Shown here: positions 36,494 through 43,800 of the stretch, piece by piece
Layout: each line of letters opens with the position of its first letter
Numbering within the stretch: position 1 is the first letter of the stretch
Position numbers and translations under genes: made by a program
Assembly: GCA_965214095.1 (NCBI GenBank)
Contig: OZ243938.1
Span: forward strand, 288,001 to 352,000
Origin: Candidatus Poribacteria bacterium
GTDB taxonomy: Bacteria > Poribacteria > WGA-4E > WGA-3G
Reading direction: 5' to 3'
Length of the DNA stretch: 64,000 nucleotides
Notes under the pieces: generated by a model
Seen by the model: only the letters and a program-made list of their open reading frames with translations
The model's database searches: none
What the model was told of the DNA's origin: nothing

Positions 36494-37543
36494 TTATTCA
36501 CGCGGCAAAGTAATTGTGTCTGGCACGATAATTTCTCTCTTGATAATTTTTTCTTTTAACGATTCTACCTTCGTTATAATTTCTTCTGAGAGTAGTGGCA
36601 TGTTGTGTTCATCAACTGCATAATAGACACCACCGTCTTCTAATCCAAAGTAACGCACTCCCGCCATGAAATTTCCATCAATGGTCTCTTGTATGATACG
36701 TTGAACAGATACAGGGATTTCTTTTGCCATACTCGTCAAAACAAGTCCAGGGGCAAGGTCGTTCCCGTTGGAATCCACCCAAATAATAAAGTTCTGTGTT
36801 TCTTGTGCTGCTTCAAGGACTCCCTGTCCTGAACCACCCGCTGCAGTGTATATGACATCAACACCACTTGCATATTGTGCTAATGCGATCTCTTTCGCTT
36901 TCTCAGGTTGAATGAAACCTGTAGCATCTAAACTGATGTATTCAACAGTAATATCAGCCATTGGATTAATTTCACGAATACCTGCAATATATCCGGCTTC
37001 AAATTCATGGAGTAATGGAACATCAGCACCACCGATATAACCTATTTTTCCAGTTTCTGATTTTAGTGCTGCGATTGCTCCGACAAGGAAGGATCCTTCA
37101 TTTGATTTATAGTTTAAAGCAGCTACGTTTGGCATTTCAAGTACGACATCAAAGATAGCAAATTTCACATCTGGAAAATCTGGAGCAACAAGTCTGAGAA
37201 TATCTCCCATTTGATAACCCGCTGTTATTACAAGATCAGAGTTTTGGGCGGCTTCTCTCATCAACATCTCAGTTGCGTCAGGATCGTTTTCATTTCCGTT
37301 CAATTCTGTTAGCATTATCCCAAGTTCAGTGACAGCAGTTCTTACACCGATATGAAAACCATCACAGTAAGCAGCAGATCCAACGCAGTCATTGGGATAA
37401 ATCATCGTTACTTTTAACGGTGTTGAATCCAACATACTTGCATCATCGGTGTCAACCACTTTCTCAACATATTCACATCCGAATACGACTACAGACATTA
37501 ATACTATAATCATTGGTAAACAAGCATTCTTGATATATTTCAT
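36494..37543 (-). CDS. BMP family ABC transporter substrate-binding lipoprotein
   Basis: Lipobox VFGC; EGSFLVG, KIGYIGG, DVIYTAAGGSG, IWVDS. Confidence 0.9.
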   Translation of the reverse strand: MKYIKNACLPMIIVLMSVVVFGCEYVEKVVDTDDASMLDSTPLKVTMIYPNDCVGSAAYCDGFHIGVRTAVTELGIMLTELNGNENDPDATEMLMREAAQNSDLVITAGYQMGDILRLVAPDFPDVKFAIFDVVLEMPNVAALNYKSNEGSFLVGAIAALKSETGKIGYIGGADVPLLHEFEAGYIAGIREINPMADITVEYISLDATGFIQPEKAKEIALAQYASGVDVIYTAAGGSGQGVLEAAQETQNFIIWVDSNGNDLAPGLVLTSMAKEIPVSVQRIIQETIDGNFMAGVRYFGLEDGGVYYAVDEHNMPLLSEEIITKVESLKEKIIKREIIVPDTITLPRE

Positions 37544-37622
37544 AGGTGCTCCAAATCTGTTGGGTGACTGATTAATCCTGAGACTGCAACAATGTGTTTG
37601 GGATGATTCATACAATCCTCCC

Positions 37623-37904
37623 TCACTTATTACTAAAATGACATCGCAAACGGTACCATCTTAGCTGCCAAATCAATTTACTTAACTTAATACGGTGCAT
37701 GCTTAGTTGCTTCCCATTCATTTCAAGTACTGGAATTAGCAGTTTATATTTAGAAAACAGTCCAAGATTCTTCGTAATGTCAATTTCCTCAACAGCAATA
37801 AACGGTAATTTCGCTTGGACGTTCTTCAATATTAATTTTGCCTCATCGCAAAGCGGACAATCCGACTTCGTATAGAATTTAAGTTGAAGCGGCGTGTTCT
37901 TCAT
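37623..37904 (-). CDS. Glutaredoxin-like protein (DUF836)
   Basis: YTKSDCPLCDEAK, EIDI, IPVL. The start ATG abuts the left end of the IS. Confidence 0.8.
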   Translation of the reverse strand: MKNTPLQLKFYTKSDCPLCDEAKLILKNVQAKLPFIAVEEIDITKNLGLFSKYKLLIPVLEMNGKQLSMHRIKLSKLIWQLRWYRLRCHFSNK

Positions 37905-37968
37905 CAACGTTTCGGGCAGGAAACCCAATCCTTTAGGTTTCGGAGGAATGCCCGCTCCTGTCCTTTTC

Positions 37969-37997
37969 TTGACAACTCATGTCAGATCTGTTATACT
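37969..37997 (+). promoter_or_regulatory. Strong sigma70 promoter of tnpB
   Basis: TTGACA-N17-TATACT with TG extended -10. Confidence 0.75.
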
Positions 37998-38002
37998 ATT
38001 CT

Positions 38003-38081
38003 CAGCATTGTTGGTAGAGAATACTACCCTCTCCGCTTGGAGAGGTCTCTACCATGCCAGTAGTATTGGTAAATAATGCTG
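38003..38081 (+). ncRNA. Structured 5' leader of tnpB (three-way junction with bulge-loop kissing)
   Basis: CAGCATTGTT/AATAATGCTG, GGTAGAGA/TCTCTACC, CCTCTCC/GGAGAGG, TGCCA/TGGTA; bulge ATACTAC is complementary to loop GTAGTAT. Confidence 0.6.
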
Positions 38082-38091
38082 GAGAAAAACA

Positions 38092-39213
38092 ATGCGAACC
38101 TATAAATACAAGATACGCAACCATTCTAAGAACAAACGCTTGGGCAACCTGTTTGATGATCTTGCTGATGTGCACAATCACTTTCTGCGTTTAGAAATGC
38201 GTTATTATCGCAGAAACGGTAAATATGCTGGTAGATATAGGCTGCAACCGCATCTTACGAAGTTGCTCAAGACAACCAAGAAACATTGGGCTTGGATACC
38301 GCGTGACACTTTGGATGCAGCGATTATTCGCATAGATGCTGCATATCAACGTTTCTTTGCTGGTCAAGGCGGACTTCCTAAATTCAAACGTAAACATCGT
38401 TATCGTTCTGCGAAGTTCCAAACAGGCTATAAACTTGAAAATGGACGGGTGCTTATCTCTTTCAAGTCGTGGAATGTCTCCACACAATCTCTGAAATTCA
38501 ATCGTCGCTGGTTTTCTTTTCATCAGCACCGAGACTGGCACGGCACTGTCCGCTATGTTCAAATACTCCGTGATAGTGCCGGTGAATACTGGCTTTACAT
38601 TGTCACCGATGATACTTCTACCGAACCTATGCGACAAACAGGTGAGAGCGTAGGTATAGACTTCGGATTGAAAACATTTTTGACTTTGAGCAACGGTGAA
38701 AAGATACAAGCACCAGAATTCTTGAAACAATCCTTGAAACATCTTCGCAAACTGAATAAAGCTGTGAGTTGTAAAGTCAAAGGGTCTAACAATTGGTGTC
38801 GCGCTATTAGAGAACTCGCCCGGCATCATATCAAGATAGCAAACCAACGGCTTGACTGGCAATGGAAACTTGCTACAGACTTGTGCAGAAGGTTTGATAC
38901 GATTGCTGCTGAAACGTTGAACCTTGACGGTATGAAGCGATTGTGGGGACGTAAAGTCTCCGATCTCGGATTTTACCAGTTTATTCAATTGTTGGCATTC
39001 AAATGTTTCAAACATGATAAACAGTTTCTGCAAATCGGACAATGGACACCTACAACAAAACCTTGTAGCAACTGCGGAGATAAAAACAATAATCTTTCTC
39101 TCAATGATAGGCAGTGGACATGTTCACAATGTAATTCAGAACATGATAGAGATATAAACGCTGCTATCAACATATTACGGGCTGCTTATGATCCCGTTGT
39201 GGAGCAGACGTGA
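38092..39213 (+). CDS. tnpB: RNA-guided endonuclease TnpB
   Basis: RuvC I VGIDFG, RuvC II AAETLN, Zn finger CSNC...CSQC, RuvC III DRDINAAINI; PKFK motif. Confidence 0.95.
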   Translation: MRTYKYKIRNHSKNKRLGNLFDDLADVHNHFLRLEMRYYRRNGKYAGRYRLQPHLTKLLKTTKKHWAWIPRDTLDAAIIRIDAAYQRFFAGQGGLPKFKRKHRYRSAKFQTGYKLENGRVLISFKSWNVSTQSLKFNRRWFSFHQHRDWHGTVRYVQILRDSAGEYWLYIVTDDTSTEPMRQTGESVGIDFGLKTFLTLSNGEKIQAPEFLKQSLKHLRKLNKAVSCKVKGSNNWCRAIRELARHHIKIANQRLDWQWKLATDLCRRFDTIAAETLNLDGMKRLWGRKVSDLGFYQFIQLLAFKCFKHDKQFLQIGQWTPTTKPCSNCGDKNNNLSLNDRQWTCSQCNSEHDRDINAAINILRAAYDPVVEQT

Positions 39214-39327
39214 GACGGGTGTTCTCTTTGGAGAACAACGCTAACTGCTACGAAGCACAAGCTCAATCCTTTAGGTTTGGGTGCTATGACATTGAAAATG
39301 TACTTCTTACATAAGTGCCAACAACTC

Positions 39328-40767
39328 TTATGCTAAAATGTCTTTGACGACATGTCCATGAACATCTGTCAGTCGGAAGTCTCTACCTTGGAACCGATAA
39401 GTCAGTTTTTCATGGTCTATACCTAATAGATGAAGCATTGTTGCGTGGAAGTCGTGAACATGTACGATATTTTCAACAGCATTGTAACCAAGTTCGTCAG
39501 TATTACCGTAGCTAATTCCACCTTGAACACCACCGCCAGCCATCCACATGGAGAAGCCTTTAATGTGGTGGTCACGACCACTTCCTTGTGCCATCGGAGT
39601 CCTTCCAAACTCTCCACCCCATATAACCAAGGTTTCGTCTAACATTCCTCGTTGTTTCAGGTCATTGACGAGAGCTGCAGTTGCTTTATCTACATACCCA
39701 GCAGTTGTTTTTATTGCGTTTTGAATTCCACCGTGATGATCCCATCCTCTATGATAAAGTTGAATAAAACGAACTCCCCGTTCAGCTAATCTTCGTGCAA
39801 GTAAACAGTTGGATGCGTATGAACCATCTCCGGGTTTTGCTCCATACATATCAAGGATTTCCTGTGGCTCTTTAGATATATCGGTTAATTCAGGAACACT
39901 TGTTTGCATACGGAACGCCATCTCATATTGATTGATACGCGTTGCAATCGTTGGGTCGTCAACTGTTTCATTGAGTATACTGTTCAAACTTTGAACTGCA
40001 CCTACCACATCTTCCTGCTGGTCTTTACTTACGCCATCAGGATTTGAGACATAGTGAACTGGATCACCTTTTGAATTGAACTGAACACCTTGGAATTGTC
40101 CGGGTAGAAATCCGCTGTGCCACTGGCGCGTTGCAATCGGTTGGTCTTGTCCACCACCAGAGGAGATAAGAACAACAAAACCGGGAAGGTTTTCATTCTC
40201 GCTACCGAGACCATATAACAACCATGACCCCATACTCGGTCTTCCTGAAATTGCGGTTCCTGTGTTCATGAAGGTGTGTGCAGGGTCATGATTTATCTGT
40301 TCGGTGCGTAAAGAACGCACAATGCAGATATCATCTGCAAGGCTGCCAATGTGAGGAAATGCTGAACTCATCACCTGTCCAGAATCACCAAAATTCTGAA
40401 ATTCATGTGTTGGTCCTAAACACTTAAGTGCATTTGCCTGACCTTGTAGCTGTGCAATCGGTTGTCCTTTTGTGTAGGATCGCGGCATCGGTTTACCATG
40501 CATTTCTGCAAGTTTCGGTTTATAGTCTAATGTCTCTAAATGTGAAGGTCCTCCAGCCATGCAAAGATGTATCACACATTTTGCTTTTGGTTGCACATGA
40601 GGTTCGGTTATGATTCCTTGCCATCGCTCAATCTTTGGGGCTGCATCAACCAACGACGGTGTGAGTAGAGAAGCAAGTGCAACTGACCCGACACCACGGA
40701 CTGTTTTGCCTAAAAATGTGCGTCTTGTGAGACGTAGTTTGGTTTCTTCATTTATACCGTTTGACAT
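39328..40767 (-). CDS. DUF1501 family protein (Tat-exported, sulfatase-like fold)
   Basis: TRRTFL Tat signal; MAGGPSHLETLDYKP, LARRLAERGVRF, WDHH, WGGEFGRTP. Confidence 0.9.
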   Translation of the reverse strand: MSNGINEETKLRLTRRTFLGKTVRGVGSVALASLLTPSLVDAAPKIERWQGIITEPHVQPKAKCVIHLCMAGGPSHLETLDYKPKLAEMHGKPMPRSYTKGQPIAQLQGQANALKCLGPTHEFQNFGDSGQVMSSAFPHIGSLADDICIVRSLRTEQINHDPAHTFMNTGTAISGRPSMGSWLLYGLGSENENLPGFVVLISSGGGQDQPIATRQWHSGFLPGQFQGVQFNSKGDPVHYVSNPDGVSKDQQEDVVGAVQSLNSILNETVDDPTIATRINQYEMAFRMQTSVPELTDISKEPQEILDMYGAKPGDGSYASNCLLARRLAERGVRFIQLYHRGWDHHGGIQNAIKTTAGYVDKATAALVNDLKQRGMLDETLVIWGGEFGRTPMAQGSGRDHHIKGFSMWMAGGGVQGGISYGNTDELGYNAVENIVHVHDFHATMLHLLGIDHEKLTYRFQGRDFRLTDVHGHVVKDILA

Positions 40768-40854
40768 ACAACTGATTCCTCCTTTGCCTAATCAATAGTT
40801 ATCGTAAAGAATACATTCAATCTGTTATAGATTAAAGGTCTGTCGTTATTCTAA

Positions 40855-43800
40855 TTAATATCTCGTAATCGTCTCATGCAGATTTAAAATCACACGAGCA
40901 ACAGATGTCCATGATGCCAATTCAATAGGTTCAACACCTTGCGTTGCGGGAGCTTCACCTATAGCAGCTAATGTGTTTGCTACGCCTGGATTTTCGGTAT
41001 ATTCGCTTTTATGTTTCTCAAATAACTGCGTCATAATCTCAAGCTCTTTCGGTTGAGGTAGCCGTGATAACGCGTGTCGATATGCCCAATTGATTCGCTC
41101 TGTAGGAGTGCCACCACCTTCACGGATTATACGTGCCGCGAGAACACGTGCTGCCTCAACATAAGTCGGATCATTCAACAATGTCAGTGCCTGCATTGGT
41201 GTGTTAGATGTTGATCTTTCGGCAGTGCATTCCTGTCTGCTTGGTGCATCAAATGCCATCATACTCGGATGTAAGAAAGTTCGCTGCCAATGCGTATAAA
41301 GTCCGCGACGATACTGACTCTCCCCTTTATCATGAACATATCTTCGTTTTGGGAAGTTAAGGTTTGAATAGTATCCTACGGGTTGATACGGTCTAACACT
41401 TGGTCCGCCAATTTTGGAAACAAGAAGTCCACTTAACAATAATGCGTTGTCACGAACGATTTCCGCATCAAGCCGCCAACGCGATTGTCGTGCAATAAGT
41501 CTATTGTATGGGTCTTTTTCGCGCAGTACCTCATTTGGTTTTGAGGACTGACGATATGTATTTGAAGAAACAATCAGTTTCACCATCTGTTTGACATTCC
41601 ATCCACTTTCCATAAACTCAACTGCCAACCAATCAAGGAGTTCTGCATGGACTGGTGGTTCACCTTGTGCTCCAAGGTCATCAAGCACGCGAGAGATACC
41701 TGTGCCAAAATAAAGTGCCCAGAGACGATTGACAAAAGCACGTGCCGTCAAAGGATTATTCCTTGACACAACCCAATTTGCGAGATCAAGTCGTGTCGGA
41801 CGACGATTCTTTATATTGAAATCACCCATAAATTCAGGTATCATCGGTTCAACAATGTCACCAGAATCGTCTAACCAATTCCCTCTCGGTAATATTCGGG
41901 TTGTTCGAGGCTGAACTGAAATAGTTGTAAGTGAGAATGGACTTTTTGATCTGATCTCATTTTGACGTTTGTCTAAATCCGAAATCTGTGTGCGGATACC
42001 ATCAAGTGCTGGTGCTATTTGTCGGAAGTAATCTTCAATCTGTTTTCTTTGGTTGGTTGTTCGGACAAACGGATCAACTTGAATAGCATTAATAACAGCA
42101 CCGTCATGAGAATTCCTTGTCACTACACCAACTGTCGTTTCAATACCAGCGACATCCCAATAGGTAGTTCCACCAAATTGTGTGAATGCAATTCCATTCA
42201 GGACACTTCCTGCTTTCAAACCGACTAATGCCGGATCAACTTCAAGACGGACCCATTTTCCCAATTCTGGTAGATCACCCATCGGTTTATGCGCTGGTGT
42301 ATCACTTCCAATGTCTCCATACACTATTTTGTCTTCTCCCCAGAATGCACGGTGGTCCCAACTACCATCGTTCCATTGAAGCATAATTGTCTGAGGTGTG
42401 TTCTCAGGATCTAACCACACATAAGCATATAGAATATCACCTTCGGCAAGTGTGACCTTCCGATTTGCATTGTGGAACGAATGTTGAACAAGTTGATCTG
42501 GTGCAGCAGTTTGTATTCGTGACTTTTCTTTGCTAAAAACAGGTGCTTCAGTTTTATTAACAAATTTCCATGTACCTTCTGTTCTTCCTCCATTTGACTG
42601 TGCATCATCAACCCAAGCGAAATCTGCAGGTTCTGTTGAAGTGAGAAGTGAACGTATCTCTTCCTCCCACTTAGTCTGCTCTGCCTTTAAACCTGGAGAT
42701 GACAACTTAAAGACTTTTCGCAACCTTACTAATTCATCGTCAATCTGATCTAATTCATCCTGTTGCTCTTGAGACGGTAACATCACAACAGGATCCCATT
42801 TGCTTCCACCTCGATATACTCCGGGACCCTCAATATCTGCGAAGAAGGCAGCGAAACTGTAAAAATCTTTAGCTGTAAAAGGATCAAATTTGTGGTCGTG
42901 GCATTGTGCACAACCGAGTGTAGCACCTAACCAAACAGATGCTGTTGTGCGTACTCTATCAGCCGCATAGATTGTGAGATATTCTTTCGCTTGTGCGCCA
43001 CCTTCAGCAGTTGTTTGAATTAGTCTATTATATCCAGATGCTACCTTCTGTTCAGGGCTTGCATTGGGTATTTGATCCCCTGCCAGATTCTCTATTGTAA
43101 ATTGATTAAATGGCATATTCTCATTAAATGCTTTTATTACATAATCACGGTAGGGCCATACGCTCACATTTTCATCGGAATGATAACCACTTGTGTCTGC
43201 ATATCGCACTAAATCGAGCCAGTAGATTGCCATCCGTTCACCGAACTGGGGTTTAGATAGCAAACGGTTAATGAGATTCTCATAAGCATCTGGACTTTCA
43301 TCTCTTATGAACTGATCAACCTCACCGGGTGTTGGTAGTAACCCTGTTAAATCAAAATGCAAACGACGACTGAGTGTGCGTTTATCTGCTTCTGCAGCTG
43401 GTTCAAGTCCTTCTGCGTTCAATGTAGATAATATAAACTGATCAATCGGATTTTTGACCCAATCAGGATTTTCTATTTCTGGAAGTTCACCCCGTTTCGG
43501 AGGAATATATGCCCAATGTTCTTCCCATTCTGCACCTTCGGCAATCCACTGTATTAACGTATCTATCTGTTCTTGTGTTGGTTGACGATTTGAGTTCTGT
43601 GGAGGCATTCGTGTATCTATGTCTTCATGCGTTATTCTCTGAACCAATTCACTTTCTTCAGGTTTACCCGGTACAATTATGGGGTAACCACTTGGTTCAG
43701 AAAAAGCACCTTCTTTAATATCAAGACGTAGGTTCGCTTGTCGTACTGCTGGATCTGGTCCGTGACATGCATAACATTTATCAGATAAAATAGGACGAAT

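Follow-up and report, generated by a model that had tools for sequence, protein, structure and literature searches.

What does an elaborately folded RNA leader do between a strong promoter and the gene of a transposon-borne nuclease? The question is raised by a tnpB gene on the forward strand of the window, the 64,000-nucleotide (nt) stretch of a Candidatus Poribacteria bacterium genome (contig OZ243938.1) that was analyzed here and to which all positions refer. From the letters of this DNA alone, a fully paired kissing-loop leader had been predicted at 37969–38094, between a consensus promoter and tnpB, and three possible functions had been proposed for it: switching translation, serving TnpB in autoregulation, or acting as a second RNA component for this clade of TnpB. 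We find that the leader is a conserved, pseudoknotted three-way junction, as judged by covariation, that it carries a duplicated closing strand, and that the same module precedes genes other than tnpB. A role as a gate on translation is our preferred, although tentative, answer to the question.

The leader folds into a pseudoknotted three-way junction

Every structural element described for the leader in the original prediction is present in the window. The closing stem P1 consists of 10 base pairs (bp), one of them G.U, between 38003–38012 and 38072–38081. The segment of its 5' strand from 38005 to 38012 is termed S1 and lies at the predicted 5' end of the RNA; its 3' strand, 38072–38081, is S2 as defined by fold and alignment. 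P1 encloses two arms. The first, P2 (38013–38053), is built from the 8-bp stem P2a (38013–38020 with 38046–38053), the 7-nt bulge ATACTAC (38021–38027), and the 7-bp hairpin P2b (CCTCTCC-GCTT-GGAGAGG, 38028–38034 with 38039–38045, loop GCTT). The second arm, P3 (38055–38071), is a 5-bp hairpin with one G.U pair (38055–38059 with 38067–38071), the loop of which, GTAGTAT (38060–38066), is the exact complement of the bulge.

Folded as RNA, the segment 38003–38094 had a minimum free energy (MFE) of −39.3 kcal/mol compared with −18.3 ± 3.0 kcal/mol for 200 dinucleotide shuffles, none of which was as good (z = −7.04). In the nested MFE structure the second hairpin is lengthened to 7 bp with a 3-nt loop and competes with the kissing pairs. 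The pseudoknot is therefore unprovable from a single sequence, and the homologues decide.

The comparison was based on alignment A2, which contains 27 diverse leaders of the sequence type found in the window (variant A). Standard pairs occupied 97.3% of its 885 cells (counts are per sequence, and related sequences are non-independent) compared with 84.7% in shuffles, and 0 of 500 shuffles reached the observed value. When the partners were slid by 1–3 columns as a control, 32–46% of the cells were paired. The check that had been proposed for the kissing interaction, covariation of bulge and loop in aligned leaders, came out in its favor: all 7 pairs covary by two-sided changes in the 27 homologues, with 97.3% of them paired, and one position shows all four Watson-Crick types (GC 9, UA 9, AU 5, CG 3). 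P2b is the best-supported helix, with two-sided changes at 6 of 7 pairs and 98.9% pairing. For P2a (GGTAGAGA/TCTCTACC), 5 of the 8 pairs are invariant within variant A. Other variants share the architecture and differ from variant A by compensatory changes in their P2a strands, which are GGCAGACA/TGTCTGCC in variant B, GCGGTGG/CCACCGC in variant C, and GTGGGAGA/TCTCCCAC in variant E. P2a is thus a helix, and each variant has its own fixed sequence for it. Independent alignments of variants B and E each showed covariation at 5 of 7 pseudoknot pairs, with 91.7 and 96.8% pairing, respectively. At the level of sequence comparison, these results confirm that the leader fold is real, conserved, and a pseudoknotted three-way junction.

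The constancy of P2a within each variant, next to helices that vary freely, suggests recognition by something. The leader could accordingly be a sensor RNA, in which a small molecule or a phylum-specific host protein binds the junction, stabilizes one closing helix, and couples nuclease and defense genes to the state of the cell. The junction strands themselves speak against such a sensor, as they are short and unconserved between variants; J3/1, for example, is GA in variant A, compared with a GUUAAAG-like sequence in variant B. The strands measure 0, 4–5, and 1–2 nt in variant A, and they also vary within variants.

Coding explanations of the leader were discarded. An upstream open reading frame (ORF) from an ATG inside S2 varies in frame and length among homologues, and the small ORFs across the leader (59–60 amino acids) contain compensatory changes and indels that fit a structure instead. 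The segment 38009–38019 in S1/P2a (AGTTGGTAGAG) is similar to a tRNA D-arm: 12 of the 46 tRNAs of the genome contain GGTAGAG, and one contains the 10-mer. This likeness is probably a coincidence, and variants B and E are without it.

The closing strand is duplicated

S1 (38005–38012) is complementary to S2 (38072–38079) and equally to a third strand, S3 (38088–38095), which is a direct repeat of S2 located 8–12 nt beyond it. In the window, S3 holds the ATG of tnpB (38092–38094), and the linker between S2 and S3, which is purine-rich in variant-A tnpB leaders, contains the Shine-Dalgarno (SD)-like sequence GGAGA (38081–38085). The duplication had escaped the original prediction.

Both partners of S1 are maintained in the 27 leaders. 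S1:S2 was 95.7 and 94.4% paired and S1:S3 96.9 and 94.4%, with compensatory changes, and one S1 column covaries with both partners (AU 14, UA 8, plus CG and GC). On comparative grounds, this covariation establishes both closing helices. A pattern census initially gave 121 variant-A rows, about half of which were reverse-strand artefacts of the near-palindromic P2a; re-filtering by S1 type left 55 distinct forward instances. In 49 of these, S2 and S3 both form at least 7 of 8 pairs with S1, three instances are without S3, and three are atypical. A perfect S3 match was observed in 38 of 121 rows compared with 18 of 1210 trials using a foreign S1.

The two helices are similar in predicted stability. 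By eye, neither S2 nor S3 is systematically the better match to S1. Constrained folds of the 27 leaders favored S1:S3 in 17 cases and S1:S2 in nine, with one tie. In a growing-chain fold of the window sequence, S1:S2 was present from 38078 to 38093, and the structure flipped to S1:S3 at 38096 (−41.4 compared with −36.1 kcal/mol). With P3 held in a pseudoknot-competent form, the two states had energies of −36.9 and −35.5 kcal/mol, and these near-equal values make the system nearly bistable on paper. S3 lies over the ATG in the window and in most tnpB leaders.

The leader is linked to a promoter and is probably an RNA

The near-consensus promoter expected ahead of the leader was borne out. A sigma-70-type promoter on the forward strand (37969–37997) consists of TTGACA at 37969–37974, a 17-nt spacer, and a TG-extended −10 element, TATACT, at 37992–37997, with 11 of 12 matches in the promoter scan. 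The 5' end of the leader RNA would accordingly lie near 38004. In a promoter census, a −35/−10 pair was found at a fixed distance in 65 motif instances; most of the 35 promoter-less rows are reverse-strand matches, again produced by the near-palindromic P2a. In variant A the −10 element ends 7 nt before S1 in 40 of 50 cases, and the overall distance is 6–7 nt. This spacing among homologues establishes the linkage of promoter and fold.

IS200/IS605 elements transpose as single strands, using hairpins. The leader might thus be a single-stranded DNA (ssDNA) structure for TnpA-mediated transposition and not act as RNA. Its structure is indeed strand-specific and also folds with DNA parameters (z = −5.8), but the DNA-parameter fold differs from the structure originally predicted. 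Moreover, the hairpin shared by the two ends of the element lies elsewhere (37921–37950 and 39259–39288), and the leader is without a counterpart at the right end. The leader also keeps its fixed 6–7 nt from the −10 box, and at loci where it precedes a GIY-YIG nuclease gene, the 170 nt upstream are without an end hairpin. A covariance model of the leader gave 74–99 bits on the sense strand and 12–24 bits on the antisense strand. Because of the fixed-distance promoter, the occurrence of the module without insertion sequence (IS) ends, and the scoring of the sense strand only, RNA is favored, and a function in ssDNA transposition is most improbable. We infer that the molecule is an RNA with its 5' end near 38004.

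The module precedes tnpB and unrelated genes

A DNA search (E ≤ 0.01) detected the leader in 78 of the 112 genomes of the family. The covariance model R1, built from 26 leaders, identified three copies in the genome of the window. In a sample of 151 genomes from the phylum, it matched 97, with up to 24 matches in a single genome. By family, matches were present in 81 of 99 genomes of family f1, in 15 of 26 of family f3, and in none of 25 genomes of seven other families. Searches with the TnpB protein recovered 79 loci, all from Candidatus Poribacteria or uncultured Poribacteria, with 56 sense-strand R1 matches (E ≤ 1e-4), every one of them just upstream of tnpB; the antisense strand of these loci scored only 12–20 bits. 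Outside the phylum sample, exact-pattern scans gave three matches on viral contigs and seven on metagenome contigs (one scan each), and a blastn search of the leader against plasmids and phages gave no match. Within the sample searched, the module is confined to two families of a single phylum, which would fit the dependence on a host factor that a sensor RNA may have.

The genes behind the module were then classified. Family f1 contained 43 distinct instances, of which 25 precede a TnpB detectable with the window protein, one is in a locus that is too short, and 17 are followed by something else. Two of these 17 precede tnpB genes of a distant clade, recognized by Pfam in L086 and by likeness to L086 and L049 in L041, which brings tnpB to 27 of the 42 assessable instances. 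The remainder comprises three GIY-YIG nuclease genes, one gene for AbiJ-NTD4 plus CAP12/Pycsar-TIR, one MvaI/BcnI endonuclease gene located after a second, tandem structure, three orthologous genes for a secreted 3-keto-disaccharide hydrolase-like protein, one tnpB-less derivative of the element, and six instances with Pfam-less ORFs or no ORF, one of which has a truncated motif. In five f3 genomes, 24 new loci were followed by TnpB-like genes in 12 cases (by N-terminal likeness; five Pfam-confirmed, from several clades), by GIY-YIG genes in two, and by a conserved stretch without an ORF in eight, and two formed a tandem pair.

These data bear on the proposal that the leader serves TnpB itself, either in autoregulation or as a second RNA subunit. 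In its favor, tnpB is the most frequent gene behind the module, with 27 of 42 in f1 and 12 of the 24 new f3 loci. However, some of the TnpB clades behind the module are only 22–44% identical to the window TnpB, and the module also precedes the GIY-YIG genes (five loci and three viral contigs), which have no IS ends nearby, as well as the AbiJ/TIR, endonuclease, and hydrolase-like genes. S1, S2, and S3 are all retained in the GIY-YIG leaders, and compensatory changes distinguish the pseudoknots of these leaders. As the same covarying module stands before GIY-YIG, defense, endonuclease, and hydrolase-like genes, ORF-less stretches, and several TnpB clades, it is not TnpB-specific. The two TnpB-bound functions of the original prediction are therefore considered very unlikely.

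The GIY-YIG genes have an arrangement of their own. In the two genomes G147 (L074/L182) and G162 (L080/L183), two paralogous GIY-YIG genes with GTHHFLG-like repeated motifs are located ~5.3 kb apart, each with its own leader. This paired arrangement is common to both genomes, and similar leaders are present on three IMG/VR contigs.

The tnpB-less derivative is located in the genome of the window (L059:1114–1700, C1 ~80095–80177, minus strand) and resembles a miniature inverted-repeat transposable element. It contains the left-end hairpin, the promoter, the leader motif without S3, ~330 nt without a long ORF, and a right-end-like hairpin, and it is inserted directly behind the right end of an IS605-type element with tnpA and tnpB. 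It may express RNA only. At the eight f3 loci without an ORF (L186, L190, L194, L201, L195, L199, L206, and L187), the leader is followed by a conserved stretch of 150–250 nt with recurring AACCAAGCCC and GAGTCTAAACGCC segments and no match to an Rfam family. This stretch could be a non-coding RNA expressed from the same cassette. A tRNA gene follows 244 nt downstream in L201.

Such loci also bear on a different explanation, in which the leader is a general 5'-end module for RNA stability or processing, placed before mRNA and non-coding RNA alike. Its 5'-terminal helix would protect the transcript from 5'-end-dependent decay or set a processing site. With S1 starting at the predicted +1/+2, the 5' end would always be paired; the module stands before ORF-less stretches, long 5' untranslated regions (UTRs; +128 and +271 nt), and the tnpB-less derivative; and it has spread among unrelated genes as a promoter-plus-leader cassette. 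However, a plain 5' hairpin would be enough to protect a transcript, and the covarying pseudoknot and the retained S3, which lies over the ATG in most tnpB leaders, are left unexplained. We regard this explanation as rather unlikely.

Two closing helices may gate translation

Our preferred reading is that the leader acts in cis and that its two mutually exclusive closing helices gate translation, a proposal to which we give slightly less than even confidence. The leader would be transcribed from the element's own strong promoter, starting at or beside the first base of the structure, and at its core is the P1/P2/P3 three-way junction, locked by the 7-bp pseudoknot that joins the P2 bulge to the P3 loop. 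S1:S2 would form first during transcription, leaving the ribosome-binding site and the ATG free. Once the ATG region has been transcribed, S1:S3 would become possible and would bury the start codon. Translation of TnpB would thereby be kept low or confined briefly to the nascent RNA, and transcription of the element, which also supplies the 3' guide RNA, would stay high. The folding order and the effect on translation are inferred.

A translational switch had been among the functions originally suggested, and it stands here as the favored one. The pairing proposed for it, between the SD sequence and TCTCC, does not: it is replaced by the duplicated closing strand over the ATG. As a conserved switch, the SD/TCTCC pairing was rejected, with an exact complement in 3 of 27 homologues and the TCTCC strand lying within P2b.

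Several observations weigh against the gate. The energies given above ignore the pseudoknot, and the most stable S1:S3 fold of the window needs an alternative hairpin that is non-conserved and breaks the pseudoknot. The position of S3 relative to the gene also varies. In the GIY-YIG leaders, S3 stops short of the SD sequence, ending ~25 nt ahead of the ATG; in variants B and E, S3 adjoins S2 and is 6–9 nt upstream of the ATG; and in at least eight loci of family f3 and three of family f1, no ORF follows closely downstream. Because S3 is not always over the start codon, its occlusion cannot be the only role of the module. In addition, a simple occluding hairpin would suffice for this purpose, and the pseudoknotted junction and the invariant P2a are left unexplained. 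Eight metatranscriptome runs contained 5–13% of the sampled words, and four of them, compared at 90% likeness, gave contigs of related elements. These contigs extend over the left-end hairpin, over portions of tnpB, and over the right end, and none covers 37994–38087. As such contigs show neither starts nor absence, they are neutral with regard to the RNA. Our confidence in the translational gate is limited by the variable position of S3 and by a fold that is more elaborate than occlusion needs.

The fold is new to Rfam and resembles known leaders in part

A cmscan search of 36500–41000 against Rfam 15 (E ≤ 10) yielded four chance-level matches, the best with E = 2.3 and all far below gathering scores. 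The sole match to the leader was RT-17, with 17.7 bits compared with a gathering score of 40.4 (E = 8.7). A match to a described family, including the IS605-associated motif, would have removed the novelty claimed for the leader, and none was found. This motif, IS605-orfB-I, is Rfam family RF03065 (PMC11701678); going by the family name only, it is a structured motif beside IS605 orfB (tnpB), and cmscan gave no match of the leader to it. Five loci with other variants gave nothing in Rfam at E ≤ 1 except one unrelated weak match. Full-text literature searches found no description of a tnpB leader RNA, and a term search of the main text of a 2026 review of OMEGA systems found no UTR, leader, translation, or left end. 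The leader is best classed with the alternative-structure leaders of mobile-element genes, with a fold that is uncatalogued in Rfam 15.

The closest working analogue is the 5' UTR of the Levivirus maturation gene. In this RNA, a 5' sequence pairs with the ribosome-binding site and closes a cloverleaf, and a metastable alternative partner delays closure (PMC4615214). Like the leader, the maturation leader of MS2 is multi-branched and is closed over a long distance by pairing of its 5' sequence with the ribosome-binding site or start codon, a mutually exclusive earlier partner briefly leaves the site open, and covariation supports both structures (PMC4615214). The corresponding features of the window are S1:S3, which holds the ATG, and S1:S2, the earlier-transcribed partner, which covaries and in the growing-chain fold forms before S3 exists; the GIY-YIG leaders, with S3 upstream of the SD sequence, depart from this pattern. 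The two RNAs have no homology in sequence or fold. The cloverleaf of MS2 has four arms and no bulge-loop pseudoknot. The transient partner in MS2 is a local hairpin, whereas that of the leader is a direct repeat of the final partner. Furthermore, MS2 RNA is copied by a replicase and not transcribed from a promoter, and the timing has been shown for MS2 but only computed for the leader.

Within the IS family, the closest analogue is the IS200 tnpA leader. A stem-loop in its 5' UTR that includes the SD sequence represses translation 20-fold, and the tnpA leader is also processed into small RNAs (PMC5435999). It is a simple stem-loop that acts together with an antisense RNA and Hfq and controls tnpA. 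The leader described here, which stands before tnpB and other genes, combines a pseudoknotted three-way junction with a choice of two closing helices.

Similarity to purine riboswitches returns the argument to the sensor RNA. In these riboswitches, a tertiary contact joins arms P2 and P3 of a P1/P2/P3 junction, and a strand of P1 is involved in switching (PMC5480868), a layout that the leader shares. The conservation of two alternative P1 helices and the presence of tandem copies, which also occur in some riboswitches (here L184/L192, 6 nt apart, and L071), would likewise suit a sensor. However, the arm contact of the leader is a 7-bp Watson-Crick pseudoknot between bulge and loop and not a loop-loop contact, the junction strands are unconserved between variants, and Rfam gave no purine match. 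No ligand is indicated: the downstream genes are nucleases, mobile-element genes, and defense genes and not a metabolic pathway that would point to one, and no ligand or protein candidate emerges from the data. A sensor function is therefore considered improbable, although not negligibly so. We are similarly doubtful of its wider form, a new class of sensor RNA that would respond to a host factor or metabolite and co-induce a set of selfish and defensive nucleases of Poribacteria (several TnpB clades, GIY-YIG, and AbiJ/TIR).

The omega-RNA of TnpB (reRNA) overlaps the 3' end of tnpB as well as the right end of the element, and it ends in a flank-derived guide. The leader belongs to the same element and strand, but it is at the 5' end, is without a flank-derived segment, and also occurs without tnpB. 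As originally predicted, it is separate from the omega-RNA: within the element it runs from +104 to +182 relative to the left end, past the TnpA-type subterminal hairpin and ahead of tnpB. A small self-cleaving ribozyme, such as the hammerhead, would have a conserved catalytic core in its junction strands. Those of the leader are short and variable, and Rfam gave no ribozyme match.

The host element and variant leaders

The leader is part of an IS1341-type (tnpB-only) element of the IS200/IS605 family on the forward strand (~37900–39290), delimited by homology to copies in other genomic contexts. Homology began at 37897–37900 and ended at 39290–39293 in 6 of 7 loci compared; in the seventh, L090, the left edge of homology lies only at 37949. 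The left end carries a subterminal imperfect hairpin of the kind recognized by TnpA (37921–37950), which covaries in an alignment of homologues and is directly repeated at the right end (family D1, 80% identical over the 30-nt segment). The right-end hairpin (39259–39288) is close to the end of the element at ~39290, and the hairpin pair is as expected of an IS200/IS605 element. No tnpA was found within 37900–39290; elements with tnpA and tnpB are present elsewhere in the genome. The tnpB gene (38092–39213, forward strand) encodes 373 amino acids with Pfam matches to OrfB_IS605 (1.9e-23) and the Cas12f1-like TNB domain (9e-19), and the product is homologous to ISDra2 TnpB (8bf8; E = 3.7e-38, residues 21–365).

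A glutaredoxin-like gene (Pfam Glrx-like, 37623–37928, minus strand) adjoins the element, and its listed TTG start falls within the IS left end. The element was thus inserted at the very start of this gene or just upstream of it, and the gene likely uses a later start codon. Three other loci of the same genome (L012–L014), with TnpB proteins 57–58% identical to that of the window, have a different leader upstream of tnpB. There, a long hairpin carries the 7-nt loop TCGTTAG, the complement of a CTAACGA just downstream, and an H-type pseudoknot thus replaces the three-way junction.

Several variant leaders have unusual features. The two complete tandem copies of the motif in L184/L192 (G142:C1:5955533–5955695) represent an additional variant, GGTAGCGA/TCGCTAT. 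L071 has a variant-A motif and, behind it, a second, variant-B-like structure ahead of the MvaI/BcnI endonuclease gene. Variant-B leaders of L120, L126, and L138 carry an insert of ~30 nt (CCCCTTCCCAGTAACGGGTGGGGACCCCGG-like) in the P2b loop. This insert recurs upstream of L050 and L055 and resembles a small mobile repeat that the tip of P2b can accommodate. The variant-B leaders of L118, L127, and L161 combine the 5' P2a strand GGCAGACA with a 3' strand of the GGAAACCGACA/TGTCGGTTTCC type of L132 and L138, and they look like recombinant copies with a broken P2a. At L130, L133, L135, L141, and other variant-B tnpB loci, a Lys/Arg-rich, A-rich N-terminal extension is located between the leader and the conserved RTYK motif. 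In several variant-B tnpB copies, GC-rich hairpin inserts in the N-terminal region put the first ATG out of the TnpB frame; such interrupted N termini could be decayed copies or a recoding site.

Implications

The control of TnpB expression is largely undescribed, and the leader supplies a compact, strongly covarying RNA fold with a two-helix design. In an uncultivated phylum of sponge symbionts, the module fronts several clades of RNA-guided nucleases as well as homing-type endonucleases. Whether it gates translation or senses a signal, the ~90-nt cassette offers a candidate part with which TnpB expression might be tuned. If the translational gate is true, it would combine strong transcription for the guide RNA with scarce nuclease protein. 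If the leader is a sensor, it would show what the elements respond to and, in the wider form considered above, would give RNA-guided transposon nucleases their first known shared regulatory input.

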